IMG/VR virus record: IMGVR_UViG_2627853872_000003
Direction: 5' to 3' (one strand)
DNA from: a virus
Taxonomy: Duplodnaviria > Heunggongvirae > Uroviricota > Caudoviricetes
Length of the DNA: 64,000 nt
Below the pieces are notes generated by a model. It did no database searches. It was not told the DNA's origin and saw nothing but the letters and a program-made list of their open reading frames with translations. This document shows positions 9,962 through 49,016 of this stretch, one piece after another. The position numbers and the translations under genes are program-made. Numbering within the stretch: position 1 is the first letter of the stretch; the number at the start of each line of letters is the position of its first letter.

Positions 9962-9978
9962 TTCTCTATTTTAGAGAA
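9962..9978. promoter_or_regulatory. 17-bp palindrome TTCTCTATTTTAGAGAA (copy 1), candidate operator/promoter element
   Basis: Perfect 7-bp inverted arms TTCTCTA/TAGAGAA around TTT. Lies in the divergent intergenic region, 17 bp upstream of the minus-strand start at 9945 and about 280 bp upstream of the plus gene at 10258. Confidence 0.7.
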
Positions 9979-10257
9979 TAGATGGTTGGGGTGACAAGCC
10001 GTCCAGCGGCTCGCGACACGCCGAGAGTCGTCAGTTCATCCGATTAGGTCCGATCGCAATTTGGAAGTACCTTCCCAACGGGGCCAGAACTGCTCCCGCG
10101 CCTGGACTCTCGACCAGCTCCGCTCCCCGGCGGCGGCTGACGAGAATCCGCAAGGGCCGAAGAACCTCGTGAAGGTCGCGTTCTGCGTTGCTCTCCCCTT
10201 TTCGTGGTGGGCGCGGGCCGGGGACGCACCGCTCGACGGAAAGGGAGGTCTCCTCTC

Positions 10258-12171
10258 ATGGCATCTGCCACCAATCGCACCGAAATGCTGGCCAAGGCGC
10301 TCATGCGCGCCCGGCCTGACTTCACGCTGCACAACGCCCGCGTTTTCTCTCGTGCAGTTATCGATGCGCCCGAGATCGTGTTCGGCGCCAAGCCTCTGAA
10401 ATACCTGCCTCGCGACACCGACCATGACGGCCCCGTCCGGTTCCCACTTGACGAGTTCGCGCAAGTCGGCGGCCCCCACGGCGCGATCATGGGAATCCCC
10501 AGTTACTGGAAGCCGCGCGTCACACGCTTCGCCGAACCACGGGACCACACACCACATGCGCGCCGGGACGCTCTCGCCGGGACGCAGCGACCTTCGAAAG
10601 CCGCGGCAGCCTGGTCCCAGGTAGCACTCACCGATGCTCGCCCAGGCGACCTGATACTCGACCCGGGTGGGGACGTTCTCGGCGTGGTGGTGGCCAACGG
10701 ACAGGTGTCCGTTGGCGGAAGCTGGAAACCACTGCCTGAGGTCATCCAGGCAGGTGGTTCTGTGCATCGCGTTGATGTACGCCACCTCGACCCTCTAGCT
10801 GAGCTGAAGCCGGGCGACGCCCGGGCTTGCATGCTGGCGCAGCTGCTGCCTTTGTTCGGCTGGGAGCCAACCTCAGCCGAGGCCATCTTCCTCGACAAAG
10901 TTCTCGCGGAGGATTTTCGGAAGCCACGAGGAATCGAGACGTTGCCCGAGCTGGTGCGCTGGCTGGATACCGCTGGCGAGCCGGAGGCTCGGCAGTTGCG
11001 TGAAGTGTTGCGCTTCTGGATCACTGATCCGAGCCCCTCCGCACCGACGAAAATCGACATTCGGGAACCGAACCCGCCTGCGTCGACCGACACTTCGAAG
11101 GCAAGAAGCATGATCGAGACACTGGCAGGGAGCCATTGGGACGAGCCGATACTGAAACTGTGGCCGCCGCAATCGTCGAAGCCACAGGTGCAGGCGAACG
11201 ATGCGGACCCACTGAATGACTACTGGCCCGATGAAAGTGCCGATGTCGCCGCGATCGTCGCAGACGCCGGCGGTGTCATGCCCCTCAGTGCCTTGTTCGA
11301 CCAACTCCACACGGCGCTGTCAGCGGCCAGCACGATCGTCCTTGGTGCGCTCAGTCGCGGCGACGTGTCATTGAACCCCGATCGCACCGTGACATTGCCC
11401 AACCGACAGCTGAAATCGTTTGAAACCACCACCAACAACGCCCAGTTCATCGCCGCAGTCCAGCTGGCGCGCGAGATGGAACGGCTCCCGGCACCATCAC
11501 CACATCCGTTGCCCACCGCTACCCCTAGTGCGCGCGAGCACGCGGCTTTTCCACTCGGGGTGGGTGCCACCGGTGAGCCAGTCACCTATAGCCCCGCTGC
11601 GGATGGACACTTGCTGGTATTCGGCGGCGCAGGCCGCGGTAAATCGATGCTGGTGCGAGGGTTGGTCCGGGACGCGCTAGCCACTAACTGGTGGGGTGCC
11701 AGACACCTTAATTCGCGGAAAGATCCGGACGCGGTTCTCGACCAAATCAGGGGAGTTCACGCAGAGATAGAGATACGCCGTGCCAATCCGAAACTCCACA
11801 AGCCCGAGCTCTTGGCGCTCGACGACGCACTGTGGGCTCACTTCGATGCGCCACAACGCGAAGAGCTACACACCCTGGTTACAGAACTGCTGTCCACCGG
11901 GCGCGAACTGGGTCTCCACCTGGTGCTGATCACCCTGACACTGGATAACGAGGAGAGATTCCCATCTCGGTGGCTCGACTTGTGCTCGACGGTGCTGCTG
12001 ACCTCCAAACCAACCCACGACGACGCGGTAAAGCTCATGGGCGATGATGCGGCTCAGCTTCCGCCATCAGGCTGGGACGGTTCTGGAAAGATGCTGCTGG
12101 TTCGCCGCTTGACCGGTGTATCGAGACCGCTACGCGCGTACACGCAAGCCGACAAGTACAAGGGGTACTGA
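10258..12171 (+). CDS. FtsK/SpoIIIE-family ATPase (TraB-like DNA translocase domain at C-terminus)
   Basis: Start ATG 10258 with AAGGGAGG RBS. Walker A at LLVFGGAGRGKSMLVRGL, Walker B-like GLHLVLITL. Large uncharacterised N-terminal domain. Confidence 0.75.
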   Translation: MASATNRTEMLAKALMRARPDFTLHNARVFSRAVIDAPEIVFGAKPLKYLPRDTDHDGPVRFPLDEFAQVGGPHGAIMGIPSYWKPRVTRFAEPRDHTPHARRDALAGTQRPSKAAAAWSQVALTDARPGDLILDPGGDVLGVVVANGQVSVGGSWKPLPEVIQAGGSVHRVDVRHLDPLAELKPGDARACMLAQLLPLFGWEPTSAEAIFLDKVLAEDFRKPRGIETLPELVRWLDTAGEPEARQLREVLRFWITDPSPSAPTKIDIREPNPPASTDTSKARSMIETLAGSHWDEPILKLWPPQSSKPQVQANDADPLNDYWPDESADVAAIVADAGGVMPLSALFDQLHTALSAASTIVLGALSRGDVSLNPDRTVTLPNRQLKSFETTTNNAQFIAAVQLAREMERLPAPSPHPLPTATPSAREHAAFPLGVGATGEPVTYSPAADGHLLVFGGAGRGKSMLVRGLVRDALATNWWGARHLNSRKDPDAVLDQIRGVHAEIEIRRANPKLHKPELLALDDALWAHFDAPQREELHTLVTELLSTGRELGLHLVLITLTLDNEERFPSRWLDLCSTVLLTSKPTHDDAVKLMGDDAAQLPPSGWDGSGKMLLVRRLTGVSRPLRAYTQADKYKGY

Positions 12172-12197
12172 CCTGGGAGCGACGTCATGTCCTCGAG

Positions 12198-12995
12198 TTA
12201 AAGCTCCTTGACGATCCTGATCTCGCCGGGAAGTGGTTCGGAGTCGACCAGCCGTGTGTCCAGCATGATCGCGACAGTGGCGTTCTGTCGGCGCAGAGCT
12301 TCAGCCCTGTGCTGTCCGTTGCCAAAGCGTGGCGGCTCATCCGGCTCAACAATGAGTCGGATGGGCTTGCGCCAAAACGACTGTGCGGCTTTCGCGAGGT
12401 CGCGCGGAACATGTGCTGGAAGGTCGGGCGGGAACTTCGATCCGGACGACAGACACTCCGCAGCCAGGGACACTGCGGCCGCCCAGTCAACGGCCATGAA
12501 CTTGTTCATATCGCGGAACAGATCGCCCTCCGGGAGTTCACACACTGCGACCTTCCGAAGAACCTCCAAGTGCGTGACTGGCGGATCTTGCAACGGAACG
12601 AAGCCAATCCCTTCATCCCATTCGGCTCCGAGCTGATTCAGCACAATGAGGTCGTGCTGGGAAATGTCGGTGAGACCCAGATACCTTCCGTCAGTGTCGA
12701 ACTCAGTGATGATTACTTCCCGCTCCGCATCGAACGCCGCCTTCGAACCCAACAGGTTGAAGATCACGACGGGTGGATGATGTGCATCTGAGAAGAACTC
12801 TCGCCATGCGGCCGAGCGATACTCCGCGGCGGCGACGTCGGGGCTCGCGTCGACGTCCCCATCGCGGAGCGTGATCAACGCGATGTCGCGCCCTTCCCGA
12901 TCGCGGAAAGTCTGAATACGCGCAGTGCCGCTGCCGTATTGATGGCTAGTCACCCACATGTGTACGTCGGCGCGTCGACCCGGTGCGATGTCCAT
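12198..12995 (-). CDS. Hypothetical protein with C-terminal ParB/Srx-like (GNGQHR) motif
   Basis: RFGNGQHRAEALRR near the C-terminus resembles the ParB/sulfiredoxin nuclease-domain motif. Last gene of the minus operon starting at 14352. Confidence 0.5.
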   Translation of the reverse strand: MDIAPGRRADVHMWVTSHQYGSGTARIQTFRDREGRDIALITLRDGDVDASPDVAAAEYRSAAWREFFSDAHHPPVVIFNLLGSKAAFDAEREVIITEFDTDGRYLGLTDISQHDLIVLNQLGAEWDEGIGFVPLQDPPVTHLEVLRKVAVCELPEGDLFRDMNKFMAVDWAAAVSLAAECLSSGSKFPPDLPAHVPRDLAKAAQSFWRKPIRLIVEPDEPPRFGNGQHRAEALRRQNATVAIMLDTRLVDSEPLPGEIRIVKEL

Positions 12996-13072
12996 GAATC
13001 AAGCTCAACACGGAACCGTGCCGGATTGTGCGTCATCGACCGCCGGCGTGGCGGATCGACGCAGAAGTCCGA

Positions 13073-13642
13073 CTAGCCCGAGCCAGAACCAAACAACCGG
13101 CGCAATCGCTGCTGCCATGACCTGCGGCGCTCTTCTGTTCTCGCCGCATCCATCGTCAGGCCCTGCCGCGGAGGTAGGCGAAAGCGCGAAGCATGATCAT
13201 CGCCCACAGCCAGGAGTTGATCCATGGGAGAGTCGTACCTACTGATGATCACCATCGGATCCGCGCCGGCGCGGCTAGCCATCTCCTCGGCCATTCGGTG
13301 CACGTAATCAATGAATTGGCGCATAGCCGACTCAGGATCGTCCACGGGTGGGCCCGCCGCAAAGGTGCTCGGAATGACCTGCATCGGGCCGTGACTCGCG
13401 CGCAACTCGTAGTGCTCGTCGATGTAAATCTCTCCGGCGGGTTCCTCCGATGGTTCGCGTTCCCCTACCGCGTGGCTTCCAGGGCAGCCGCCGCGGGGCA
13501 GGCCATGCCAGGGCGCACCACACCGGCATGCCGGTACACGCCCCGGCCTAGTCTCGCCGGCGGCTAGCTGACTGTCGATCAAATCGTCAGCTTCCAGCGC
13601 GTTGATCTCGGCGATCACAGCGTCTTCAGGATTTCCTTTCAA
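13073..13642 (-). CDS. Hypothetical protein
   Basis: 189-aa ORF, operon-internal (4-nt overlap with the upstream gene). Confidence 0.5.
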   Translation of the reverse strand: MKGNPEDAVIAEINALEADDLIDSQLAAGETRPGRVPACRCGAPWHGLPRGGCPGSHAVGEREPSEEPAGEIYIDEHYELRASHGPMQVIPSTFAAGPPVDDPESAMRQFIDYVHRMAEEMASRAGADPMVIISRYDSPMDQLLAVGDDHASRFRLPPRQGLTMDAARTEERRRSWQQRLRRLFGSGSG

Positions 13643-14352
13643 CGGCTCGCATCTCCCGCGTCGGCGCGCTCAATCACCGTGATCTTCGGCCGCTGCAATA
13701 CGGTCTGTAGCTGGCCTCGGTACATGCCGGTTCCGCACACTGTTCCGGTGATCTTCACACGATCGCCGCGACCTACGTCGTACAGGCAGCTGGCAGTTCC
13801 CTTGCACATGAGTACCTGACCGGTCTCCAGCGTGAACACAACGATCTTCACGTACTCGGTATGGCCGGTGTAACCGGTGCGTTCGAAGCCAGCCGAGACG
13901 GTCACCGAGGCCTCCAGATCGCGCAGACGCTCCCCTTCTGTTCCAGCCGGAGTGTTGTTCAGGACGGCGCGACGCTCCTGCTCGGCATGCGCTGCTTCCC
14001 ACGCCCAGTCGAATTCGGCGGCGCGTCTCGCGGTTTCAGCCGCCTGTGCAGCCGCCGCTGCTTCGTCGGCCAGCTGCTGTCCGTGCTCACGGAACAGCGC
14101 CTCCAGGCGTGCATCGCGACGGAACATCGACACAGCACGACTGCGCGACACGCGTCCGGCTCCGTCGCAGCCGAAGCAGGTTCCACCCGCCTGGCCGGTG
14201 CTGGTCCACCAGGTGAAGATTCCGCTACCGCCGCACCGGCCACATGTCTCGGTCCAGCAGATGCGATCTGTCGCCGCCTTGCCCGGGTAGGGGTCGACAT
14301 AGGTTTCCACCGTGAATCGGCGCCCCTGGTGAGTGACGACAGCAGTACTCAT
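13639..14352 (-). CDS. Zinc-ribbon / OB-fold-like protein
   Basis: Start MSTAVVTHQ at 14352. CGRCGGSG...CFGCDGAG four-Cys zinc ribbon. C-terminal VKIVVFTLETGQ...VKITGTV looks OB-like. Palindromic motif copy 2 sits 14 bp upstream. Confidence 0.55.
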   Translation of the reverse strand: MSTAVVTHQGRRFTVETYVDPYPGKAATDRICWTETCGRCGGSGIFTWWTSTGQAGGTCFGCDGAGRVSRSRAVSMFRRDARLEALFREHGQQLADEAAAAAQAAETARRAAEFDWAWEAAHAEQERRAVLNNTPAGTEGERLRDLEASVTVSAGFERTGYTGHTEYVKIVVFTLETGQVLMCKGTASCLYDVGRGDRVKITGTVCGTGMYRGQLQTVLQRPKITVIERADAGDASR

Positions 14353-14365
14353 ACGCCTCACTCTA

Positions 14366-14382
14366 TTCTCTATTTTAGAGAA
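14366..14382. promoter_or_regulatory. 17-bp palindrome TTCTCTATTTTAGAGAA (copy 2)
   Basis: Exact copy, preceded by a partial extra half-site ctctat. 14 bp upstream of the minus gene start at 14352. Confidence 0.7.
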
Positions 14383-14464
14383 TTTCAACGGAGAAGGACG
14401 TGCCCCCGTGTCATCACCTATCGAGATGAGCACCACGCGCACCCGTTGGGCGTACACATCGGAG

Positions 14465-14707
14465 CTATCCGATGACCTGCTGCGTCGACTTGGCCGCCAA
14501 AAGCGACAGCTGCGCGATCTGAGCAAGAAGTGCGTCAGAGGCTCCTCGGCTGAGCTTGGTCGGATTGAGGTCCAGACTCAGTCCCACCGAACCGGCTTGT
14601 CCGAAATCGAATCGCAAGCGGCCTTCTGCCGGTCCAGAGGCGGTCATCACCTCCAGCACTGTCGCTAACGGCTGCGAATCCCACCGCGCGGGCAGCCGAT
14701 CGGTCAC
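14465..14707 (-). CDS. Hypothetical small protein
   Basis: 80-aa ORF. 4-nt overlap with the upstream gene 14704-15558. Confidence 0.4.
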   Translation of the reverse strand: MTDRLPARWDSQPLATVLEVMTASGPAEGRLRFDFGQAGSVGLSLDLNPTKLSRGASDALLAQIAQLSLLAAKSTQQVIG

Positions 14708-15558
14708 TGCACTACTCCTTCAGCCCGCCGGTCCTTCTCGGCCTTCTGGGCTGCAGCGTCGGCTTCGATCGCGTCGAAGGCCGTAAGTAGCCCGAGATGT
14801 GACGGCTTATGAAAAGTCTCCGGATCGAGCATGAGCCACCAGCTCGCGTCGGGCCGGCGCTCCTCCAAAAGTGCGCTGATGGAGCGGTCCCACTGCTCTG
14901 CACCTGAAAGGGCGTCGAAGGCTTTTTCGGCGGCCCAACGCTCTTGGTCGGTTTGGCCGTCGGCGTAGAAGCCGGCCGCAGCGCCTTGCAACCAGGAAAG
15001 GGAAACGCCTTGACTGGTGGTGATGATCGCGGGGCTACGACTGTCCGACCGGAGCAGTTCAGCGGCGCCCTCCCACCCGGATTTGTCGCGCAGGATGTGT
15101 GCCTGCAGTCCGTCGTCAATGATTCCCGCGAGCCAGGATCGGTCCAGTCCCGTGACCAGCAGCCCCTCCTCTGAGTAGGCGTGAATTCGGGTCAGAAGTG
15201 CGATCGGGTCGCTACCTGCAACGACCGCGGTGTTGATCACGAACCCATCGGGACGCTCGGTCTTATCTCCGATACGAATGTCTGCCGAACCGTCCTCGTA
15301 CATCATCCCGGCTAGCGGCGCCCAGTGGGTGAAGGTATCGGTTAATGAGGCTGCGCGACCGTGCATTTGGGCGTTGAACTCTGCTTGCCGGAAAAAGATG
15401 TCCGGCAAGATGCGGCGATTGCGCTCCTGCGTGCGCTGCCCGTCGAGCTCCAGAATCGCCGCCGTGAGTCGCGCAGCCAGCGCAGCACCATATGGTCGTT
15501 CGGCGCCTCGGACGGACGCGCTGCCGTCCCGGGTTGTGAAGTCGATACCGCTCATCAT
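14704..15558 (-). CDS. Hypothetical protein
   Basis: 284-aa ORF with protein-like composition. No motif recognised. Confidence 0.55.
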   Translation of the reverse strand: MMSGIDFTTRDGSASVRGAERPYGAALAARLTAAILELDGQRTQERNRRILPDIFFRQAEFNAQMHGRAASLTDTFTHWAPLAGMMYEDGSADIRIGDKTERPDGFVINTAVVAGSDPIALLTRIHAYSEEGLLVTGLDRSWLAGIIDDGLQAHILRDKSGWEGAAELLRSDSRSPAIITTSQGVSLSWLQGAAAGFYADGQTDQERWAAEKAFDALSGAEQWDRSISALLEERRPDASWWLMLDPETFHKPSHLGLLTAFDAIEADAAAQKAEKDRRAEGVVQ

Positions 15559-15845
15559 GAGTCTCCTTGCGCTACTGGGTGATCGGTGTTAAGTGCCCAG
15601 GGCTCTGCTGGGTTATGGCAATCGGTCGGTTCCGGTGTGATGTCGAAGCGGCAGCACTGGGTGCATTCGGTTGTCCTGCACAGCTCTTCATGTGGGCACG
15701 CACACCCGACATCGGGATCACAGGCATGTTCTCGCGCAGCGGGCTCTGCTTCCGGTCTACCCTCGCTGCCCTTGGCGCCGCAGTCGCGGCAGTACCACCC
15801 CGCGACACCCACCCAGATGTCCGCGTTCCACCCGATGTCAGCCAT
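15555..15845 (-). CDS. Cys-rich small protein
   Basis: 96 aa with CRDCG, CDPDVGCACPHEELCRTTECTQCC. Possible metal-binding. Confidence 0.45.
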   Translation of the reverse strand: MADIGWNADIWVGVAGWYCRDCGAKGSEGRPEAEPAAREHACDPDVGCACPHEELCRTTECTQCCRFDITPEPTDCHNPAEPWALNTDHPVAQGDS

Positions 15846-15869
15846 GTGTGCACCATTCGTTCGGACATC

Positions 15870-16289
15870 TCAGCGGCCGTCACCGGGGTATCGGCAGACA
15901 CGGAATCCGTCGCTGTCGTAGCGCCAGTCCCCGTCAATGAGGATGGTCTTCCCATCAGCGACAGTCCGAAGCACTCGCGTACATGGGACCGAATCGTCGC
16001 CGAATCCGCGGACCGGCCGCGTAACTTCGACGGACCACCAATCAGTCCCCTGCCGCACGCGCGTTCCGGACTCACGCGACATGAAATCGTTTAGCTGCTC
16101 AGCTGATTTGAACTCGGACCACTCAATCGGTTGCGGTGGATCGCCTTCGATGAAGTGCCGCAGGCCCGGCGCAATTGCGAACCCAAAAAAGAGCGCCGCC
16201 GCTGTGATCAGCGCCCACGTTGTGATCCCCCGCGTCAGTTTGGCAGTCACAATGCGGACCAACATCGGACGCTTCTGTTCATCATTCAC
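15870..16289 (-). CDS. Membrane-anchored hypothetical protein
   Basis: N-terminal TM helix WALITAAALFFGFAIAPGL followed by a soluble domain. Confidence 0.5.
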   Translation of the reverse strand: MNDEQKRPMLVRIVTAKLTRGITTWALITAAALFFGFAIAPGLRHFIEGDPPQPIEWSEFKSAEQLNDFMSRESGTRVRQGTDWWSVEVTRPVRGFGDDSVPCTRVLRTVADGKTILIDGDWRYDSDGFRVCRYPGDGR

Positions 16290-17010
16290 GTTCGGTTCTC
16301 CTTTCTCGGAGTTCTACTTTGAGCGCCGCAGTAAGGCCGGCCCACGTAACCGGGTCAAGACCGGAGACCAGCTCGCTGAAGGCCTCGACCCATCCAGCGC
16401 CGTGAATCTTGTGGAGCTCATATGCCGCGTCTCTGAGCCGGTCCAGGTCCACCGGTTCAACGTGCTCAGCCTCCGGGAACATCTCGGCTGGATTGAACGT
16501 CCGGTCAGAGACGAAGCTCATGAACACGATGCCGTGTAGGCACATGTTTCGGCCGATCAGTTCGCGGCGTAACGCTACGGCGAGTTGGTCGCGCGCCGGA
16601 GACGACAGGGGGGCAATCGCACGTAGCGATTGATTGAACCAGTGGGCTCCGATGTATCCAGAGCCTCCCGGGTGCGGCCCGTCGTCCCGGCGGCCCGTCA
16701 ACTCTGAAATGATCCGCGCCAGAAGCGGGGTCGTACGGCAGATTCGTCCGCCGATCCACCACCACGGGTGATCCAATCGCAGGCGCCACACATGGAAGGT
16801 GTCGTCGTTGGAGACCAGCAGAGCAAGATCGCCCATCTTCTCGCGCCCGCCTGCCAATGCAACGGTGACCGGATCAGTTGAGCGCATGTGGTGGTTGTGT
16901 TTGAACCCCGGATTGGTTTCAGCGAGTGCGCCATACAGATCCAGCAGCAGTACGGCCCGCCTGTGCGCCTCCGCGCTTGGAATTACGCCGGAAGCTGTCA
17001 TACGTGTCAC
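16282..17010 (-). CDS. Hypothetical protein
   Basis: 242-aa ORF within the minus operon. Confidence 0.5.
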   Translation of the reverse strand: MTRMTASGVIPSAEAHRRAVLLLDLYGALAETNPGFKHNHHMRSTDPVTVALAGGREKMGDLALLVSNDDTFHVWRLRLDHPWWWIGGRICRTTPLLARIISELTGRRDDGPHPGGSGYIGAHWFNQSLRAIAPLSSPARDQLAVALRRELIGRNMCLHGIVFMSFVSDRTFNPAEMFPEAEHVEPVDLDRLRDAAYELHKIHGAGWVEAFSELVSGLDPVTWAGLTAALKVELRERRTERE

Positions 17011-17429
17011 TGATCGCCCTCTGGCACCGATCCGAGGTTCGACATGAGTTGACCGAGTCGGACTAGATCGCGGTCTTTCTGAGTGGGTAGTGCCGCTATG
17101 GCGCGAATGTGCTCGGATTTCAGTTCTTCGCGACTTCTGCGAAGGTGCTGAACACTCAGCTTGATCGGATCTGTTTCCGGTGGAAGGCGCTGATCCTCAG
17201 GGATGTCTTTCTCAGATTTGTAGATCTGCGGACACATCGTCGCGGCTTTGAGGCACCCGCGCGCAGCCTCGATCTGCTCATCGGACCACTGATCAGTAGG
17301 GGCGGTTGTGTCGGCATTCACGACTACCGACCGCGTCACTTCTGCCCGGGAATCGCGACGACCGCGCCCGCGCTGCCTGGCCAGCAGCCGGCAGGGCTGC
17401 CGCCCTTCTCGCGCACCAGATCCAGGCAC
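17007..17429 (-). CDS. Hypothetical protein (start uncertain; overlaps SPFH gene 3' end)
   Basis: True start may be the internal MCPQIYKSEKD (about 17237). Confidence 0.4.
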   Translation of the reverse strand: MPGSGAREGRQPCRLLARQRGRGRRDSRAEVTRSVVVNADTTAPTDQWSDEQIEAARGCLKAATMCPQIYKSEKDIPEDQRLPPETDPIKLSVQHLRRSREELKSEHIRAIAALPTQKDRDLVRLGQLMSNLGSVPEGDQ

Positions 17430-18271
17430 TTGCTCACCAAGACGTTCGGGTCGTGACTCACCGACTGGGACAGGATGCGGTTCGCTTCAGCCTCTGCCTC
17501 TGCGGTCTTCTGCCGCTGCAGCGCGATCTTGGTGTTGGCGATTTCGGTCTGTAGGTTGTTGATCGACTGCTGGGTGCGGTCATCGAAGTGAATGACTGGG
17601 ATGTTGACGCCGATCACCTCGATGCGGTTGCCTACCTTGGCCTTGAGCTTGTCAAGCACCATGGTGGCCAGCTTGCCGTTGATAGCTCCGTCGCCCTCGC
17701 CGACTTGAGTCAGTGGGTTGTACCCGGCGAGTACATCGTTGATCGCGGCAGTGAACTCACGGGTCACGAGGTTGTCGCGAATCGCGTCGAAGCCCCGGTA
17801 ATCCTGGAACAGGCTGGGCGCTGCCTCGGGCTTCAGACGCCACACCACGGTCGAGTCGACGCGTGCGGTCGAGTTGTTGCCCAATCGCGCGTCAATGGCG
17901 GTCTTCTTATCGCCTTCGTCGATGTGGTTGTCCGTCTGGATCGCGCCATCCAGTTCAGTGACTTCCTGCCAGGGCGCGGTGAGATGCAGTCCGTTGTCGA
18001 GGAACTGACTCGGCCGGCCGAAGGTCGTGACCACACCGATGTTCTTGGTGCTTACCAGCGTGATGCTCGACAAGACCAGACTCAGGACCGCCACAAAACC
18101 GACGACGGCGCTCACGCACCACGCCCAGAAGCTCGTGTCCGCTTTCTTCTCGTACACGCTCTGGGCTCCCCTCCGTTCTGCGAGCCTGGCCTGCCGGCCC
18201 GACCTGACAGCTACAGCGAAAGCGCCGATTGCGATCAGAAACAGAATGGCGATGATGATCGTGGTCCCCAC
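17336..18271 (-). CDS. SPFH/band-7 (stomatin/prohibitin-like) membrane protein
   Basis: Two N-terminal TM helices, then the SPFH core KNIGVVTTFGRP...LHLTAPWQEVTELDGAIQTD, then a coiled-coil tail (ALQRQKTAEAEAEANRIL). Confidence 0.7.
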   Translation of the reverse strand: MGTTIIIAILFLIAIGAFAVAVRSGRQARLAERRGAQSVYEKKADTSFWAWCVSAVVGFVAVLSLVLSSITLVSTKNIGVVTTFGRPSQFLDNGLHLTAPWQEVTELDGAIQTDNHIDEGDKKTAIDARLGNNSTARVDSTVVWRLKPEAAPSLFQDYRGFDAIRDNLVTREFTAAINDVLAGYNPLTQVGEGDGAINGKLATMVLDKLKAKVGNRIEVIGVNIPVIHFDDRTQQSINNLQTEIANTKIALQRQKTAEAEAEANRILSQSVSHDPNVLVSKCLDLVREKGGSPAGCWPGSAGAVVAIPGQK

Positions 18272-18328
18272 GAGAGAACTCCTTTTCGGTTTTAGCCGCG
18301 CACATCGCGACGTATCGACCCGATCGTA

Positions 18329-18345
18329 TTCTCTGTTTTAGAGAA
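18329..18345. promoter_or_regulatory. 17-bp palindrome variant TTCTCTGTTTTAGAGAA (copy 3)
   Basis: One mismatch from the consensus. Divergent intergenic region between the SPFH operon (start 18271) and the FtsK-AAA gene (start 18610). Confidence 0.65.
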
Positions 18346-18609
18346 GTCAATTGGGATACGAATCGCTTTCCTTCGGCGTGCCGCGCACTCGTGTCGCATT
18401 CGTCAGCCCCGGATGTGTGCCCGTAGCTTGCCCGTCAATCGCCGCGCCACGTGGCGGGAGCCGTGACGGCCGGGCCGCGACCCCGGTCATTCCGGCGGTC
18501 AGCCCCCCATAGGAGCCGTGGCACCGAATGAACCCTGTCCTCTGCGGATGTGGCAGGTGGTCGCGGCGCCGGTAGCCCACGTCCGCGTGAAGCAGGAGGT
18601 ACATCTCTC

Positions 18610-20616
18610 ATGGTCGATTCAGCACGCCTCAAGAAGAGCGCCCGCGAGTACATGGCAGCGCACCCGGGAGTCAAATATCAGCAGGCTCTCGCGATCGTTC
18701 GAGATCAAGACCTAGTTCCGATCGCAGCAGCGTCAGATACGCCGGTAGGTCCGCCGCCACCGGTGGCGGCGACTTCCCGTGCTGATGGCGGTGATCCGGC
18801 CGGCCCGGAGGCTTGGCTGAACGCACTCGGCGGCATCCCAACCGCCGACGAACTCGCAGCCCGCTGGGCCAATTCCGACACCGAACAGAGCCTGCGAGTT
18901 CCTATCGCAATGAGCGTCGATGACAATTTCAAGTTCAGCGATTCCCCAGAACCGGTCTGGCTAGATCTCGCCGAGGCCAAACTGGGCGGCAACGGCCCCC
19001 ACGTGTTGATCACTGGACGCACCGGCAGCGGCAGGTCGGTTGCAAGCGAAGTTTTGCTCACCGGCCTGGCAGCCCTATACAGCCCCGACCGCCTACAGTT
19101 CGTCCTCATCGGCGGCGGTGTGCACCACCCGTATTTCGATCGACTTGCACAGCTGCCCCATACCGCGGCCTGGCTCTCAGATTCATCAACAGATCGAGTA
19201 GGTCTGACGGCCCTGTTGGACCAGTTGGATGCCGAGATCGCCCGCCGCGATGATCGAATCACCAGACACGGAGTAAAAGACATAGGCGAGTATCGCCAAC
19301 TGGTGGAAGCCGGCAGCGCCGATCCGTTGCCGGATCTTCTAGTTGCGATCGAAGAAGTACGTACCGTTGTGCGCAATACCGAGTCGCTCGAAAAGCGCAT
19401 CTTGCGCGTGCTCAGGGTCGGCCGGTCACTGGGCATACACGTTCTGCTCATCGATCAAGGTAATTTTGATTCCGAACTAAGCCAGCACGTCACTGCGAGC
19501 CTGAGTCTGGTTACGGGCTCGCCAACGCGCAGCCGGACATTGTTCGGCGCCGATGCCTCGACTCTTCACGGCCAGCCGATCGGATCTGCCCTCCTCCACA
19601 CGCTCCCCCCTGTCGGAGCTGACGCCCTTACGTCACTGCGGATCTTCTGGATCTCCTCGCCAGCTGAATATGTACAGGAACTACTCAGAGTCTTGGTATC
19701 CATGCCGCGCCCGAGCTATCAGATCGTTCAACTCCCGAAGCGCCGCTGGGGTTTCGACACGTTGATCGGCTTGGACGATTTCAAGGATCAGAGCCGCGCC
19801 CTGATCGCCTCAGCACGCATCGAGGCAGAGCTCGTGCGGCGCGGTATGCCGCGCTCCCCTCGTGCCATGAACTTCGCATTCACCGGGCCGTCGGGAACAG
19901 GGAAAACACTGGCGGCAAAGGCACTTTCACACGAGCTGTTCCGGGGCGGTGTCACCACAAGGGATAGCTTCGTGCAGGCGAACCGGTCTTCATTGGTCGG
20001 CACCGTCGAGGGTGAATCGGCAGTAAAGACACGGAAAGTCCTGGAAGAAGCGCGGGGCGGAGTCATCCTCTTGGAGAACGCGCATGAACTCATACAGCAG
20101 CGAGGATTTGGAGGAGACCCCTTCGGCGCAGACGCCTTGAGCGCCTTGCTGGACTTCATGGACGGCAACAAAGGCGAACTTGTAGTGATATTCAGCGGCG
20201 ATGAACCATCCCTCGAGCGGTTCTTCAACGACAATCCCGGTGTCCGCACTCGTCTGCAGCACCAGATTCGTTTCGCCCCCGCAGATTCCGAACAACTTTG
20301 GGAAATTCTCGTTCGGCATGCAGAACAGAGCGGCCGAGTGATCGACGCCGGGGCACGTGAGAGGTTCCTTGAGACCGCTACGAAGCTCCGCGCCACGCTC
20401 AACGGTCGTGGATCATCGATGCTCGACGTACTCGGCAACGGGCGCTTCGCTTCCAGCATCTGTGAGCGCGCGCAACATCGTGCTGCGAGTCGACTCGCTG
20501 GCGCGGAATTGTTGACCCTGACTGATTTGGATCTACTGCTGCTCACGACTGACGATGTCAACGGCGCCATCGACGAACTGATCCGCACATTCAAGATCGA
20601 TCTCGCCGTTAGCTGA
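18610..20616 (+). CDS. FtsK/SpoIIIE-like ATPase fused to CbbX/EccA-type AAA+ ATPase
   Basis: N-terminal half: HVLITGRTGSGRSVASEVLL (Walker A), LLVAIEEV (Walker B-like). C-terminal half: NFAFTGPSGTGKTLAAKAL (Walker A), GGVILLENAHEL (Walker B), arginine-finger region. Resembles the CbbX-type AAA domain of EccA/SpoVK. Confidence 0.75.
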   Translation: MVDSARLKKSAREYMAAHPGVKYQQALAIVRDQDLVPIAAASDTPVGPPPPVAATSRADGGDPAGPEAWLNALGGIPTADELAARWANSDTEQSLRVPIAMSVDDNFKFSDSPEPVWLDLAEAKLGGNGPHVLITGRTGSGRSVASEVLLTGLAALYSPDRLQFVLIGGGVHHPYFDRLAQLPHTAAWLSDSSTDRVGLTALLDQLDAEIARRDDRITRHGVKDIGEYRQLVEAGSADPLPDLLVAIEEVRTVVRNTESLEKRILRVLRVGRSLGIHVLLIDQGNFDSELSQHVTASLSLVTGSPTRSRTLFGADASTLHGQPIGSALLHTLPPVGADALTSLRIFWISSPAEYVQELLRVLVSMPRPSYQIVQLPKRRWGFDTLIGLDDFKDQSRALIASARIEAELVRRGMPRSPRAMNFAFTGPSGTGKTLAAKALSHELFRGGVTTRDSFVQANRSSLVGTVEGESAVKTRKVLEEARGGVILLENAHELIQQRGFGGDPFGADALSALLDFMDGNKGELVVIFSGDEPSLERFFNDNPGVRTRLQHQIRFAPADSEQLWEILVRHAEQSGRVIDAGARERFLETATKLRATLNGRGSSMLDVLGNGRFASSICERAQHRAASRLAGAELLTLTDLDLLLLTTDDVNGAIDELIRTFKIDLAVS

Positions 20617-20624
20617 CGAAGGAC

Positions 20625-20664
20625 GCTCCCGGTGTCAGGTCCCCTCGGATTTGACACCGGGAGC
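20625..20664 (+). terminator. Intrinsic terminator-like hairpin (13-bp perfect stem)
   Basis: gctcccggtgtca ... tgacaccgggagc with a 14-nt loop, 9 bp after the stop of 18610-20616. Confidence 0.6.
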
Positions 20665-20770
20665 ATTAACTCCCGCTCGGCTGCTATGCGTCAGCTAGCC
20701 CAGATGTTGCCCTGCATGCAATCTCGCGCCGGACAGCTGTTTTGGGCCCTGGAGATGCGACTGTGCGGCC

Positions 20771-20968
20771 ATGGCAACATATACCGTCGCTCATCCGGAT
20801 CTGCCAGCGGATCTGAAAGAGACCACCATCAGCACGCTCAGCGGCCACGACGTCGCGCGGTCACTGGCAGCTGTGCATGTCGCGGGAATTCTGTGGCGCC
20901 GCGGTGATGGCACCGCTGTCCACGCGGCTGACCTACTCCCTGGAATCACCATCACGGAGGTGGCATAG
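20771..20968 (+). CDS. Hypothetical small protein
   Basis: 65-aa ORF immediately upstream of the 50-aa ORF. Confidence 0.4.
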   Translation: MATYTVAHPDLPADLKETTISTLSGHDVARSLAAVHVAGILWRRGDGTAVHAADLLPGITITEVA

Positions 20969-20970
20969 CA

Positions 20971-21123
20971 ATGCAGTTCAAGGCGATACACCCGGACTCG
21001 GCACACACTGTTCACGTCGAGGCCGAGGATGCGGTAACGGCACGCGCAATAGCCGCTACTGAATTCGGCGAAAGACTCGGCCGCACAGCCGACGCCGTGC
21101 TAGATCAGGTGTTTGTCAGCTGA
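20971..21123 (+). CDS. Small ORF (50 aa) not in ORF track
   Basis: ATG 20971 preceded by GGAGG (20956-20960). Translation MQFKAIHPDSAHTVHVEAEDAVTARAIAATEFGERLGRTADAVLDQVFVS. GC3-rich codons. Confidence 0.35.
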   Translation: MQFKAIHPDSAHTVHVEAEDAVTARAIAATEFGERLGRTADAVLDQVFVS

Positions 21124-21847: not shown

Positions 21848-21876
21848 AAGGCGCCCGTAAGCGACACGCCGAGCCG

Positions 21877-32805: not shown

Positions 32806-33026
32806 GCATTCGATGCCGACATCATTGCCATCTAGTTGCCGACACGCCGATAGGTGGCATCGAAATAGGCATATTGCCCATTCGCCTGATCTCTACATCG
32901 AAATATCGCCAATGCTGATCTCGCCGACACCAGCCCCCCGCTCGCCACTGCTGCACATTTCCGCCTCTGCGATGTGCACCTGTGTTCACGGTGCGAATCG
33001 TTCGGTGTGCACGGTTTCTCGCCGCG

Positions 33027-39016: not shown

Positions 39017-39048
39017 CAGACCGACCACGAAACGCAGGAGGAGGACCG

Positions 39049-40044
39049 ATGTCGATGACGCAGGAAGTGCGTGACGAGTTGAGTCGCGCCACATCAATAC
39101 ACCAGGGGTGCAGGCGTGTTCAGGTCGCAGCTATCGTCCGACTCGCTGGTGAGCTTCGTGTCTCCCGTACCGGGCTGACGGTGCACATCGAGGTCGGCAC
39201 CGGTGCCGTCGCGCGGTACCTGCGCCGGGAAATCGCAGCGCTGTATGGCCACAAAGCAGTAGTGATCGTGAACAGCGAAACCGGATTGCGCCGTGGTGCC
39301 CGTTACACGGTGCGCGTGAGCGAAGGTGGGCGTGATCTCGCCCTACAGACTGGTCTCATCGACCTGCGCGGCCGGCCCGTCACCGGGCTACCCGCGATGG
39401 TGGTCGGCGGATCACCGGGCGAGGTCGCCGCAGCCTGGCGCGGCGCCTTCATGGTCGCTGGATCATTGATCGGACCGAGCCGATCCAGCGCGCTGGAGAT
39501 CAGCTGCCCCAACCCCGAAGTGGCATTCGCGCTGACCAGCTGCGCGCGCCGGCTGGGTGTTCAGTCGATGGTGCGCACGGCTCGTGGCATCGACCGTGTC
39601 GTGATTCACGACCATGACAGCATCGGAACGCTCTTGACCCGAATCGGTGCAGACGAGTCGCGCATCTCCTGGGAGAGGCGAATCGCTCAGCGCGCAATGC
39701 AGTCGACCGCAATCCGGCTGGTCAACCTCGATGACGCCAACGCGCGTAGATCAGCACGAGCAGCGGCAGCCACGGCGGCCAAGGTGAAGCAGGCACTAGC
39801 GATTTTGGGGGCAGAAGCACCCGAGCACCTGGTGCACACCGGACAGCTCCGCCTGGATCACCGCGAGGCATCTCTGGAAGAGCTTGGGCAGCTCGCCCAG
39901 CCGCCCATCACCAAAGACGCTGTCGCAGGCCGGTTGCGGCGGTTGCTCATCATGGCCGACCGCCGCGCCGCCGGAGAAGAGCAGGACGAGTTCGATTCAG
40001 AGCGCCCCGACGGTGGGGCCGTCCGACTCCTGGCAGGTGCGTAA
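39049..40044 (+). CDS. WhiA-like transcription regulator (paralog 1)
   Basis: ATG 39049 with CAGGAGGAGG RBS. C-terminal HTH region LDHREASLEELGQLAQPPITKDAVAGRLRRLL matches the WhiA C-terminal domain. Degenerate LAGLIDADG-like N-terminal domains. Confidence 0.65.
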   Translation: MSMTQEVRDELSRATSIHQGCRRVQVAAIVRLAGELRVSRTGLTVHIEVGTGAVARYLRREIAALYGHKAVVIVNSETGLRRGARYTVRVSEGGRDLALQTGLIDLRGRPVTGLPAMVVGGSPGEVAAAWRGAFMVAGSLIGPSRSSALEISCPNPEVAFALTSCARRLGVQSMVRTARGIDRVVIHDHDSIGTLLTRIGADESRISWERRIAQRAMQSTAIRLVNLDDANARRSARAAAATAAKVKQALAILGAEAPEHLVHTGQLRLDHREASLEELGQLAQPPITKDAVAGRLRRLLIMADRRAAGEEQDEFDSERPDGGAVRLLAGA

Positions 40045-40047
40045 TCC

Positions 40048-41860: not shown

Positions 41861-42814
41861 GTGAATCCACTGACGCAACGGGTCAAATACGAATTGAATC
41901 GTGTACTTCCGTCGATCAGCGACAAGCCTTCGACCAGACGTGCGCAGGTCTCAGCGATGCTGCGCTTCGGCGGCGGGTTTTTCAGTGAGGGCCGCCGCTG
42001 CTGGATCGACGTCGAGCTCGATACGCGCGAAGCCGCGGTGTTCTTGCGCGACGAGATCACCAAGCTCTTCGACGCGGCGCCGCGCGCGTTCGAGCTATCG
42101 GCGGGAACCTTCAAGGTGCGCCAGATACATCGCGCCCACAACCTAGCGGCGCAGGTGGGCCTGCTCAGCCCATCGGGCCGGCCGGTACTGGGTATGTCGC
42201 CGGCGGTCGTGGCAGGCACACGCGCTGACGCGGCAGCCGCACTTCGCGGTGCGTTCTTGGCAAGCGGACAGATCATCACCCACGAGCTCCGCCGACCGCG
42301 CCTCGAGGTTGTGTGCCCGACTGCCCCAGCGGCGATGGCACTCGGTGGGTTCGCCCGCCGCCACGGAGTACAGAGTCAGATGCGCGAATACACCCGCGAC
42401 GGAGCATCTGTCGATGTATTCGAGATTCGCAAAACCCCGGAGATAGGTAGATTCCTCATAGCCGTGGGAGCACCCGAAGCTGCACACACCCTCATGAGCA
42501 CGCGCCGCGAATCGATGAGCGTCGAGAACCTCGAGGCTGCCAACAGATCCAGGTTCATCCAGGCGGCACACGACCAAGCCGAATCAGTGGGGCGTGCGCT
42601 CCGAATCCTCGGCGATGACGTGCCACCACAGCTGGCCGAGGCGGCGCGACTACGCCTGGAGAACCCGGAAGCCCGAATGAGCGAGCTTGCAGCCAACGCC
42701 GATCCACCGATCACCAAGGACGCCTACGCCGGCCGAATCTGGCGCCTGCTGCAGCGCGCGGAAGAGCGCGCGAGGGACTCGGCAGCAGTTTCCGACAATG
42801 CCGCCGTTCGATAG
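41861..42814 (+). CDS. WhiA-like transcription regulator (paralog 2)
   Basis: C-terminal LENPEARMSELAANADPPITKDAYAGRIWRLLQRAE mirrors the WhiA HTH domain of paralog 1. Same overall architecture. Confidence 0.65.
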   Translation: MNPLTQRVKYELNRVLPSISDKPSTRRAQVSAMLRFGGGFFSEGRRCWIDVELDTREAAVFLRDEITKLFDAAPRAFELSAGTFKVRQIHRAHNLAAQVGLLSPSGRPVLGMSPAVVAGTRADAAAALRGAFLASGQIITHELRRPRLEVVCPTAPAAMALGGFARRHGVQSQMREYTRDGASVDVFEIRKTPEIGRFLIAVGAPEAAHTLMSTRRESMSVENLEAANRSRFIQAAHDQAESVGRALRILGDDVPPQLAEAARLRLENPEARMSELAANADPPITKDAYAGRIWRLLQRAEERARDSAAVSDNAAVR

Positions 42815-42836: not shown

Positions 42837-42853
42837 TTCTCTATTTTAGAGAA
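42837..42853. promoter_or_regulatory. 17-bp palindrome TTCTCTATTTTAGAGAA (copy 4)
   Basis: Exact copy. 23 bp after the WhiA-2 stop and 23 bp upstream of ATG 42876 (RBS AAAGGGG). Confidence 0.7.
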
Positions 42854-42875: not shown

Positions 42876-43718
42876 ATGCCAGCAATCACACCGCTACAGG
42901 GGCCGATGACTCTGGCGGCTCAAACCATCGCTGACAGCGTCTCCGCGAGGTTCGCGGGAAGCCCGACCCGGTTCTACCCGTCGATCGAGCGTGACCCCAA
43001 AGAACCATACTCGGCGGCCATCGCACAGAGCTCAGATCTAACCTGGCGCAAAGGTCGTGGAAAGTCCCGCAAGGGATTCGGTCTCTGGATTCGCCCCAGA
43101 ACCGCACCCACGATGAAAGCCGTGCCTACCCGCATCTGCGAAAACATCGCTGCCTGCGCCGCACTTGGACTGAGCTACTGGAGCGAAGCGCCGGATCATG
43201 GGGCGTTGTGGGCGTTAGACACCGAGACCGTCATTCACATGGTGATGATCACTCGTCATTCGAATACCGCGAAGCACATCTGCGGCACCGACAAGGCGCT
43301 GCGCTACGGGGACACTCGCAGGCGTTGCACCGGTACTGGCGAAAGCGCCGAGTACGCGGCTACACCTGACGACGAAGGATTATGGGCGCTCGCCGATTTT
43401 CGACCCACCCCAGGTGCCTTCATTGGCACGGTCGACGCACCCGCACAACGGGACCCGCGGAAGGCGGTGAAACTCAAAATCGACCAACAGTTGCTGCTGT
43501 TCGTTGCTGCTCAGATCCGCGAAAACAACAGCGCCATCACCGCCCTTGATGCGGAGATACTTGCCGCTCTGTACTCGACCCGTCAGTATTCGAGCTCCTT
43601 AACACTCAGCGTCTCGGTCGCACGCGACCTCATGCCACTCATCGAAGCTGAGATCAAGCGCCGAGCCGAGGCCGCCAATGAATGCGCCACCAACATGCGA
43701 GAGGCTGCCATAGCATGA
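42876..43718 (+). CDS. Hypothetical protein
   Basis: 280 aa. First gene after motif copy 4. Confidence 0.5.
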   Translation: MPAITPLQGPMTLAAQTIADSVSARFAGSPTRFYPSIERDPKEPYSAAIAQSSDLTWRKGRGKSRKGFGLWIRPRTAPTMKAVPTRICENIAACAALGLSYWSEAPDHGALWALDTETVIHMVMITRHSNTAKHICGTDKALRYGDTRRRCTGTGESAEYAATPDDEGLWALADFRPTPGAFIGTVDAPAQRDPRKAVKLKIDQQLLLFVAAQIRENNSAITALDAEILAALYSTRQYSSSLTLSVSVARDLMPLIEAEIKRRAEAANECATNMREAAIA

Positions 43719-47877: not shown

Positions 47878-48224
47878 GCTGTGTCCGCTGTGGATTCGCA
47901 CACTCTGGCCACGCGACGAAGGCCACTGCGGGTCCGGTGTTGTATCACAACTTCGAACGTGAGAAAGAGGATGCCGATGAAACTTGCCGCTAGCGGCGGA
48001 AGCGCCGTACAGGTAAAGGCCAGAAGGCCTATTTCGAGTACAAAGATGCCCGCCTGATTGGCCGCACCGATGCGGCGCCACCGTCGATAGTCCTGAGCTC
48101 CGGCGTCATTAGCTATCTGCGAAAGCGCGAGCGTCGCGCGCTCTCGTGGTGTGAGTCGGAATAGAGAAACGGCCACCGCGCCGTCCATGAAAGGCACGAG
48201 GCGTGACCGGACGCGGACGCTCAC
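47874..48224 (-). CDS. Possible small membrane protein
   Basis: Hydrophobic GIFVLEIGLLAFTCTALPPLAASFIGILFLTF. Weak support. Confidence 0.3.
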   Translation of the reverse strand: MSVRVRSRLVPFMDGAVAVSLFRLTPRERATLALSQIANDAGAQDYRRWRRIGAANQAGIFVLEIGLLAFTCTALPPLAASFIGILFLTFEVVIQHRTRSGLRRVARVCESTADTA

Positions 48225-48565
48225 CTGTCACCACCAGCGACCGGCTGCTTATCGTTCCAATCACAGTCGGCAGCAACGCCGTTCACATGGTTGTAGCGGG
48301 GGTCGCCGTCATAGGCGTGCTCGTAACACAGCACCTTCTCCTTGCCACCAGGAAGAAGCATCCAGTAGGTGCTGAACCCGCCATCGACATTGGGGGTTTT
48401 CGTCTCTGGCGCCGGGGCCGGAATCGGCCTCGTCGTTGGTGTAGCAGGGCTCTCGAACCCGGGAAGCAGGGTGTCCGTACTGCACCCCACCACTGACCCA
48501 GCCACGCCACCGAAGATCAGCGATGCCGCCACGATGCGGGGGACCAGGCGGCGGGTCACTGGCAT
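48221..48565 (-). CDS. Putative lipoprotein
   Basis: Signal peptide plus VVGCS lipobox, Pro/Thr-rich linker, Cys-containing C-terminus. Confidence 0.5.
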   Translation of the reverse strand: MPVTRRLVPRIVAASLIFGGVAGSVVGCSTDTLLPGFESPATPTTRPIPAPAPETKTPNVDGGFSTYWMLLPGGKEKVLCYEHAYDGDPRYNHVNGVAADCDWNDKQPVAGGDR

Positions 48566-48666
48566 ATCCCAGCAATCAAAACAGCAGCGATCGCCACGAC
48601 GATGGCGATGAGCACCGCTGCCGCAGGCCAGCCATGCAAGCTCTGCAATGGTGTGTTGAAGTCCAT
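48558..48666 (-). CDS. Small hydrophobic peptide (36 aa) not in ORF track
   Basis: MDFNTPLQSLHGWPAAAVLIAIVVAIAAVLIAGICQ. Stop overlaps the start of the lipoprotein gene (ATGCCAGTGA). Confidence 0.35.
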
Positions 48667-48671
48667 GTTCC

Positions 48672-48953
48672 TCAGCCCTTCTCGCTGCGTGGCTCGGACC
48701 CCAGACTCAGCAGCGAGGTGAGGTTGAGATCGCGCTGAATGTTCCCGCCCGTCACGGTGTCGACGACGAGCAAGGTCCCGGTCACGATGATGGCGATCAG
48801 GGCGACGTGCAGGAGCTTTCTCACGATGCCGCTGACAGCAGTGACCACGGCGACAACAACGGCCACCGACGCGGTCGGCCAGTGATTCATGCCAGGCACA
48901 AGGGTTGTAGCGGTACCGCCGACACCCGTCGTCAACGCTCCCGCCAACGCCAT
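48672..48953 (-). CDS. Small membrane protein
   Basis: Two hydrophobic helices (VAVVVAVVTAVSGIV; LHVALIAIIVTGTLLVV). First gene downstream of motif copy 5. Confidence 0.45.
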   Translation of the reverse strand: MALAGALTTGVGGTATTLVPGMNHWPTASVAVVVAVVTAVSGIVRKLLHVALIAIIVTGTLLVVDTVTGGNIQRDLNLTSLLSLGSEPRSEKG

Positions 48954-48999
48954 GCGGCGAAAAGCTGCCGTTCTGAACACGACTACCACCTATTCCAAG

Positions 49000-49016
49000 T
49001 TCTCTAAAATGGAGAA
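49000..49016. promoter_or_regulatory. 17-bp palindrome variant TTCTCTAAAATGGAGAA (copy 5)
   Basis: Reverse-orientation spacer with one arm mismatch. Followed by TAGAT as in copy 1. Upstream of the minus-strand membrane-protein operon. Confidence 0.6.

Follow-up and report, generated by a model that had tools for sequence, protein, structure and literature searches.

Five copies of one short palindrome at gene starts raise the question of what the sequence does and which protein reads it. They lie in a 64,000-nt stretch of DNA from the IMG/VR virus record IMGVR_UViG_2627853872_000003, called the window here, which evidently represents a large plasmid-like element integrated in Mycobacteroides abscessus and a member of a plasmid-like family. 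Our analysis indicates that the 17-mer TTCTCTATTTTAGAGAA is probably the operator of a dimeric helix-turn-helix (HTH) repressor that is encoded by the element and would occlude promoters element-wide, with the XRE-family protein XRE100 as the most likely binder.

The window was searched for the 17-mer with up to three mismatches. This gave three exact copies at 9962-9978, 14366-14382 and 42837-42853, all on the plus strand, and two copies with one mismatch at 18329-18345 (plus strand, G at position 7) and at 49000-49016 (minus strand, C at position 6). No sixth match was obtained, and the copies are those that an earlier note on this DNA had listed. By chance 0.02 copies were expected (mean of 100 dinucleotide-preserving shuffles; the largest count was 1). 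When the pattern was reduced to the arms, TTCTC-N7-GAGAA, the identical five matches were found, and no weaker ones, where 0.03 were expected. The statement that such a recurrence is far beyond chance in DNA of 65% G+C (GC) content is borne out for the count, whereas the GC content is 60-65.5% per 2-kb block and stays below 65% over most of the window. An AT-rich 17-mer is conspicuous in DNA of this composition.

Genes were mapped with a codon-usage score trained on long open reading frames (ORFs), five regions were read in all frames and about 60 products were compared with Pfam. All five sites are intergenic and lie 13-57 nt from the nearest start codon, within the 11-60 nt given before. Sites 1-3 are between divergent genes, again as proposed. 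The sites are:

Site 1, 9962..9978: exact TTCTCTATTTTAGAGAA; 16 nt to the ATG at 9945 (minus strand) and 280 nt to the ATG at 10258 (plus strand).
Site 2, 14366..14382: exact; 13 nt to the ATG at 14352 (minus strand) and 25 nt to the GTG at 14408 (plus strand).
Site 3, 18329..18345: TTCTCTGTTTTAGAGAA; 57 nt to the SPFH start at 18271 (minus strand) and 265 nt to the ATG at 18610 (plus strand).
Site 4, 42837..42853: exact; after the second WhiA paralogue and 22 nt upstream of the ATG at 42876 (plus strand).
Site 5, 49000..49016: TTCTCCATTTTAGAGAA on the minus strand; 19 nt upstream of the GTG at 48980 (minus strand).

The extended sequence that had been ascribed to two of the sites was found at sites 1 and 5, which both read ...GAGAATAGAT on the plus strand.

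The motif has a 7-3-7 architecture, TTCTCTA-TTT-TAGAGAA, with inverted-repeat arms of 7 bp. The arm centres are about 10-11 bp apart, so that the half-sites of the dyad are about one helical turn from each other. Often a TA flanks each side, and the fuller form is then the 21-bp palindrome TA-TTCTCTA-TTT-TAGAGAA-TA. For position statistics, 24 non-redundant sites were aligned. TTCTC and TTTTAGAGA were invariant or nearly so, position 6 was T in 19, C in 4 and G in 1, and position 7 was A in 14 and G in 10. TA is favoured immediately outside each arm and precedes the motif at 15-16 of the 24 sites. Either arm may face the nearest gene.

The conservation of the sites was followed in three diverged versions of the element (L061, L063 and L064), whose FtsK+AAA protein is 76-81% identical to that of the window. 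At sites 1-3 the 17-mer is retained in all three, with one mismatch at most. Site 1 is exact in each of them though the upstream flank differs. Site 2 is exact in L061 and L063 and has G at position 7 in L064, with an unrelated downstream flank there, and site 3 is identical across the three. In these versions site 2 serves only the minus-strand gene, and the idea that the TTT/AAA centre follows the gene direction was rejected on this ground. In the four-way alignment the motif columns were 98-100% conserved, compared with a mean of 74% over 11 kb and 61-89% for the genes.

Orthologues of sites 3, 4 and 5 are found in elements with 49-82% identity of the neighbouring proteins, and also in other genera. 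Mycobacterium sp. D16Q14 (L121) has an exact copy of site 4, which lies between homologues of WhiA (49% identical) and of the DUF7457 protein (54%). Further post-WhiA orthologues of it were found in L195, L196, L197 and L198 and on Tsukamurella plasmid 13 (L199, 42972), and the orthologues of site 5 precede a homologous gene of about 100 amino acids (aa) in L195, L196, L197 and L198. Sites 4 and 5 are both kept in three further lineages, with 82%, 65% and 54% identity of the neighbouring protein, and these lineages have additional sites in front of a ligase-like gene and a DUF2786 gene.

On Tsukamurella plasmid 13, a site-3 orthologue lies beside the SPFH gene (L199, 64-78). In 90 kb of this plasmid 11 sites were counted, each of them between genes and at a gene start, with the SPFH and post-WhiA positions among them. 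The motif form CTCTCTATTTTAGAGAG occurs here, in which the outer pair is changed from T to C in the left arm and from A to G in the right arm. In L191, four of the five sites have the outer T-to-C change on the left arm, and two of these (at 19841 and 21796) also have the symmetric A-to-G change on the right arm; the other sites end in T or C. Because the 17-mer is exact at fixed positions in diverged relatives while the flanks diverge, the motif is considered to be under strong selection. Taken together, its occurrence is non-random, dyad-symmetric, strongly conserved and promoter-proximal. In L063 a helicase/HA-domain gene pair is inserted at 13186-16552 and carries a two-mismatch copy, TTTTCTGTTTTAGAGAA, 22 nt from a gene start. 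The insertion suggests that incoming genes are recruited to the regulon.

The specificity for the element was examined in the adjoining DNA. No motif was found at up to four mismatches in 15 kb of host flank and in a 6-kb integrase island, which argues against a conserved host regulator as its reader. A scan of public genomes gave at least 120 matches. Among the matches listed, most were chance occurrences in AT-rich genomes, three from Niallia were copies of one larger repeat, and most of those in high-GC genomes belong to related mobile elements, which is likewise a point against a host regulator. A match in a metabolic operon of Nocardia and one in a metagenome-assembled genome from a fen may be due to chance. 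In viral contigs, 58 single matches to the 17-mer were rejected as related elements, since the contigs are AT-rich and the matches are at chance level. The motif, its core and its reverse complement were not found in the searchable literature.

The earlier note had proposed a dimeric-repressor operator or promoter element that marks an element-wide regulon. The comparison supports this proposal, because the 17-mer is far better conserved than its surroundings, persists in other genera at the starts of orthologous genes, has more copies beyond the window and has none in the 15 kb of host flank and the integrase island. Judged by sequence comparison, the motif is real and functional.

A binder was looked for among the HTH proteins. 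The window encodes two WhiA paralogues (39013-40044 and 41861-42814) and one HTH_17 Xis-like protein (6258-6554), and no XRE-family gene was found in it by Pfam on about 60 ORFs and by phmmer on all six frames. The sequences L185 and L186 differ from the window at 49308-64000 by 1 base in 14693 and thus represent the same element continued to the right. This right flank contains an eccB-like gene, small operons, two XRE-family genes and a tRNA array. The features that concern the binder are:

XRE100: 7748-8050 of L185, extrapolated to 65536-65838, plus strand; 100-aa XRE protein (Cro/C1-type; HTH_3/HTH_31), divergent from eccB-eccC.
XRE91: 4308-4583 of L185; 91-aa paralogue with the motif variant TTCTCCGCATTAGAGAA 22 nt upstream.
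eccB-like gene, 3' part: 63606..64000, minus strand; runs off the window end and has the XRE-family gene as divergent partner.

The XRE100 gene is located about 1.5 kb past the right end of the window in the same element and has a motif copy, TTCTCCGTTTTAGAGAA, 29 nt upstream of its ATG (extrapolated 65490-65506). An exact copy was found 16 nt upstream of a 118-aa gene that lies between XRE100 and XRE91. With the right flank included, the element therefore has eight sites, five in the window and three beyond it. The pairing of an XRE gene with a site is repeated in homologues of 79% (L187), 74% (L190), 49% (L188) and 46% (L191) identity. In L188, a metagenome contig, the motif reads TTCTCTATATTAGAGAC, and on Tsukamurella plasmid 13 (L191) it reads CTCTCTGTTTTAGAGAG and is 24 nt upstream of the gene. 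An XRE91-like gene of M. canariasense is also paired with the motif, and at two other Tsukamurella loci it is about 100 nt upstream of an XRE gene. Near the XRE homologue of a Rhodococcus plasmid (40% identity) no motif was found. The L188 contig has the XRE gene and its operator twice, at 2229-2571 and 5525-5867, in inverted orientation, with identical upstream sequence and flanking an eccB-like gene.

An XRE gene that repeatedly has a site of its own, in homologues of 46-100% identity, is the classic signature of autoregulation. The AlphaFold model of XRE100 showed a five-helix domain with a predicted local distance difference test (pLDDT) score of 94-97 over residues 21-80. Its fold matched ClgR, the controller proteins of restriction-modification systems, P22 c2 and DdrO, with template-modelling (TM) scores of 0.62-0.76 for ClgR and the controller proteins, and the best sequence match in the PDB was an 'immunity repressor protein'. 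These fold matches and the immunity repressor are all dimeric palindrome binders. We infer that XRE100 is the most likely binder of the motif. The candidates named before, which were the WhiA paralogues, the product of 21877-22443 and the Xis-like protein, are not the best ones, as an XRE gene outside the window carries its own motif copy.

The positions of the sites were then compared with promoter sequences. In the region 9800-18700 only three sigma-70-like matches were found (1.9 expected), all of them on the minus strand and all overlapping sites 1-3. At site 1 the -10 sequence TAAAAT (9973-9968, minus strand) is inside the motif and part of a 10/12 consensus match. At site 2 the motif fills the spacer between a -35 TTGAAA and a -10 TAGAGT, and at site 3 it fills the spacer between TTGACT and TACGAT, in both cases on the minus strand. 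In addition, the flanking TA and the TTCT of the arm make up TATTCT, which several sites extend with TGn; the upstream flank of site 4, TGATA, joins TTCT in the extended -10-like TGnTATTCT. TATTCT fits TANNNT, the mycobacterial -10 pattern.

It was also considered whether the motif is mainly a bidirectional core promoter, with TATTCT at its ends and TATTTT/TAAAAT in the centre, that is read by the host RNA polymerase or by a dedicated sigma factor. The TA in front of so many sites, some of them with the extended TGn, the central TAAAAT at site 1 and the short and fairly uniform distance of 13-29 nt to many start codons are all in line with this. The central hexamers had to be rejected as a general -10, however, since the G at position 7 in 10 of the 24 sites destroys both of them, and at sites 2 and 3 the motif sits in the spacer and not at the -10. 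A promoter has no need for a near-perfect dyad symmetry over 17-21 bp, and either arm of the motif can face the nearest gene. No sigma-factor gene was found among the Pfam-scanned products of the window. The sequence is also unlike the promoter of a specific sigma factor in that it is symmetric, is used in both orientations and has a -10/-35 register at site 1 that differs from that at sites 2 and 3. As the main function of the motif, a core promoter is quite improbable, and it would be compatible with a dual role as promoter plus operator.

If the motif is an operator of XRE100, each repressor monomer would contact one TTCTCTA arm, with the spacing and the DNA shape set by the conserved T-tract. 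XRE91 would possibly act together with XRE100. The sites are 13-57 nt from the start codons and would overlap core promoters, so that the repressor, once bound, would obstruct RNA polymerase at several operons simultaneously, and it would also occupy its own promoter. In this way the secretion/transfer, SPFH, post-WhiA and small-gene operons of the integrated element could be held under one switch. Repression is the most likely direction of the regulation, because a palindrome-bound protein would occlude the polymerase; we infer this direction, as well as the transcription starts. A further-reaching proposal is that the 21-bp palindrome is a bidirectional promoter-plus-operator cassette with a TATTCT -10 at each end, which XRE100 and XRE91 read asymmetrically. 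As a master on/off switch, the two proteins would jointly control whether the elements of a Mycobacteriales-wide plasmid-like family are excised and transferred. These elements would move with eccB/eccC and several FtsK-like ATPases, and they carry tRNA arrays and NAD-salvage genes. As a whole this proposal is unlikely.

Some of our findings weigh against the operator of a dimeric XRE repressor. The alignment of the sites is not fully symmetric, as positions 6-7 vary and the mirror positions 11-12 are nearly invariant. At sites 4 and 5 the consensus scan detected no sigma-70-like match. The XRE proteins that share the motif also differ in the residues with which the recognition helix begins and which are predicted to contact the bases (NLSVY, DWRVL, GFKVL, DERVF and HWTNL); only the SRIERGERP that follows is conserved. 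Because of these different helix starts, the XRE genes could be targets and not encode the binder.

In that case the palindrome would be the operator of a different protein, such as a WhiA paralogue, the HTH_17 Xis-like protein, a small protein of the element or a conserved host regulator, and the XRE genes would be members of its regulon. The HTH genes in the window provide candidates for this, and in all relatives that were examined WhiA genes adjoin site 4. WhiA is nevertheless an unlikely binder, because its short asymmetric recognition sequence GACAC (PMC3781837, PMC10243135) is missing from the palindrome; another motif in the window, CGACACGCCGA, would suit WhiA better. A 129-aa HTH_23 protein, resembling sigma-70 region 4, is encoded in the site-1 operon of the relatives. 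It was rejected as the binder because its gene is absent from the window, where the sites persist. The autoregulation signature of the XRE genes also speaks for XRE100, and we regard a different binder as unlikely.

The palindrome could in principle act in the RNA, as a hairpin in the 5' untranslated region that controls mRNA stability or translation, or else in the DNA, where the FtsK-like translocases or a recombinase would recognise it. A stem of 6 bp is possible within the 17-mer, and the A7-to-G change would retain a G-U pair in it; five FtsK-like ATPases are encoded by the element. With -4.9 kcal/mol the stem is weak, however, and site 5 in its context folded no better than shuffles (z 0.37). 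What is conserved is the sequence and not the pairing, as T6-to-C and several outer-pair variants break it. At sites 2 and 3 the motif would be upstream of the minus-strand transcription start, and no Rfam match was obtained at the gathering score or at E values up to 1. For a translocase site, the known recognition sequences of FtsK and TraB are short, G-rich, asymmetric repeats clustered at one locus and not palindromes at gene starts. Both explanations are highly improbable.

The genes that adjoin the sites were assigned as far as Pfam and the relatives allowed. They are:

9763..9945, minus strand: 60-aa gene, first in the minus-strand operon at site 1, which continues with 9530-9766 and 8402-9025.
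10258..12171, plus strand: FtsK-like ATPase, right of site 1, with a near-invariant leader that contains CGACACGCCGA at 10014-10024.
13639..14352, minus strand: 237-aa gene that adjoins site 2; function not assigned.
17336..18271, minus strand: SPFH/Band 7 gene, first in the operon left of site 3 (Pfam PF01145, E 1e-21).
18610..20616, plus strand: FtsK/SpoIIIE + AAA (EccA-like) ATPase, right of site 3, with a near-invariant leader before the start.
42876..43718, plus strand: DUF7457 gene, first gene downstream of site 4 (Pfam PF24256, E 5e-17).
48672..48980, minus strand: 102-aa gene, first gene downstream of site 5; homologues were called in L195-L198.

The 60-aa gene had no Pfam match and is 82% identical in L064. 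The 237-aa gene is possibly leaderless, and the small plus-strand gene at the GTG 14408 beside site 2 is present in the window lineage only. The regulon had been proposed to include the SPFH operon, the post-WhiA operon and the FtsK-like ATPases. The first two do adjoin sites. The membership of the ATPases, which start 265-280 nt away and not within the 60 nt given before, is uncertain, because long conserved leaders separate these genes from the motif and, at site 1, CGACACGCCGA intervenes.

These leaders of 265-280 nt (analysed in 10060-10350 and 18300-18700) are 93-99% conserved among the relatives, compared with 74% for the region and 61% and 81% for the ATPase genes themselves. Both end in GGAGGT..TCTCATGG. 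They gave no Rfam match, and their folding did not exceed that of shuffles (z +0.6). They might represent a DNA cis-site, a small ORF or a recombination tract. The second motif, CGACACGCCGA, has six exact copies in the window where 0.18 were expected, all outside the called gene set:

6200-6210, minus strand.
6638-6648, minus strand.
10014-10024, plus strand.
21862-21872, plus strand.
32840-32850, plus strand.
50929-50939, minus strand.

The exact 11-mer core is above chance, whereas TCGCGACACGCCG with mismatches is at chance level. Downstream of site 1 the 11-mer is kept in the relatives. It includes the WhiA core known from publications, GACAC, and with two WhiA paralogues encoded by the element it may mark WhiA-dependent promoters.

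The left boundary of the large element, which begins at 5984, is:

5942..5983: attL, a 42-bp duplicate of the 3' half of tRNA-Val(CAC), with the breakpoint at 5983.

All motif sites are to the right of attL. From 1 to about 5.9 kb of the window there is an island of about 6 kb, which comprises a tyrosine integrase gene (1-1209) and its exonuclease genes. The contig FSET01000012.1 (L193) represents the empty site, in which tRNA-Val(CAC) is intact and the integrase island is still there; the island is therefore a unit separate from the large element. An integrase belonging to the large element was not seen in the window. The FtsK+AAA protein occurs in identical form in many M. abscessus assemblies, for example CP065033.1, and one protein of the element is indexed in 262 blocks of an assembly collection.

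In a megablast search of window positions 9000-21000 against phage and plasmid collections no match was obtained. The FtsK+AAA protein had only weak, partial matches among phage proteins, and on this ground a known phage was rejected as the identity of the element. Its gene content comprises eccB/eccC-like genes, five FtsK-like ATPases, two WhiA paralogues, a DNA polymerase, a cluster for nicotinamide adenine dinucleotide (NAD) salvage and ADP-ribose, and the tRNA array. The NAD cluster (51161-55192, minus strand) consists of NUDIX, NAMPT-like phosphoribosyltransferase, phosphoribosyl pyrophosphate (PRPP)-type phosphoribosyltransferase and Macro-domain genes beside an FtsK-like ATPase (55189-56262) and is kept in M. 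canariasense. This gene set resembles the NAD-salvage/ADP-ribose modules that have been linked to counter-defence. The tRNA array beyond the right end has 11-23 tRNA genes beside an HNH gene (184-3371 in L185, 15932-20220 in L190 and 14785-19061 in L187). It resembles the 'tRNA array units' of mycobacterial plasmids, for which eccB was also noted (PMC12803027).

Relatives were found as plasmids or integrated elements in Mycolicibacterium, Mycobacterium and Tsukamurella. Plasmid 13 of Tsukamurella tyrosinosolvens (NZ_LR134455.1; L191, L199) is a circle of 264 kb that is syntenic with most of the window and with the right flank. The common genes are those for SPFH, FtsK-like ATPase, helicases, S1 peptidase, SLT, DNA polymerase, E3-binding protein and WhiA, and further those for Thg1, a SLOG protein, GmrSD/HNH, LppX, eccC, eccB and the divergent XRE gene. 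Because of this synteny the M. abscessus element is seen as an integrated relative of the plasmid family. PLSDB types plasmid 13 as non-mobilizable despite its eccB/eccC, SLT and several FtsK-like genes.

Literature searches for a description of the element returned only general mobilome and tRNA-array papers. The family is widespread and poorly characterised, and almost no gene of the present element has a known function. While the regulatory principle is conventional, this particular switch has not been described previously. If the operator reading is true, depletion of the repressor should switch on the whole element and reveal its role, for example in transfer, in secretion or against phages. 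Genomes can also be screened for this element family with the motif as a simple marker.

Among the known systems, SinR of Bacillus subtilis is also an XRE-family protein. Its consensus GTTCTYT is best bound as an inverted repeat (PMC3163267), and this half-site contains the TTCTCT arm seen here. The base before TTCTCT is A or T in our sites and not G, and the spacing may differ. XRE100 lacks the tetramerisation domain of SinR. In a comparison with a SinR query sequence it showed no specific similarity, and no SinR-like protein was detected. The resemblance of the half-sites may be coincidental.

The closest folds, those of ClgR and the restriction-modification controller (C) proteins, belong to dimeric, autoregulatory proteins whose palindromic targets have an AT-rich centre. 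The boxes bound by ClgR are rich in GC (CGC-N5-GCG type), and C-boxes occur in pairs in front of one restriction-modification operon. Both types of box differ from the motif in sequence and do not share its dispersed arrangement.

The immunity repressors of temperate phages and integrative elements, such as lambda cI/Cro, P22 c2 and ImmR of ICEBs1, are alike in that a small Cro/C1 HTH protein is encoded by the element itself, that palindromic operators overlap promoters, as is predicted here, and that an operator lies at the repressor's own gene. The best PDB match of XRE100 and the P22 c2 fold point in the same direction. An ImmA-like anti-repressor protease or peptidase domain was not found among the Pfam-scanned products of the window. 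In these systems the operators are clustered in one region, whereas here they are dispersed over at least 60 kb and at least eight transcription units. The present element also differs in having two paralogous XRE genes and in being plasmid-like, with eccB/eccC and a tRNA array, and not a phage.

Such a dispersed arrangement is known from the stoperators of cluster A mycobacteriophages, which are bound by gp71 in L5. There too, many copies of one repressor site are spread across a mycobacterial mobile element and silence it genome-wide. Stoperators are 13-bp, asymmetric sites that are oriented with transcription, often lie within transcribed regions and bind a monomeric repressor. In the element described here, which has no phage DNA match, the site is instead a palindrome of 17-21 bp that is found at gene starts only and can face the gene with either arm.

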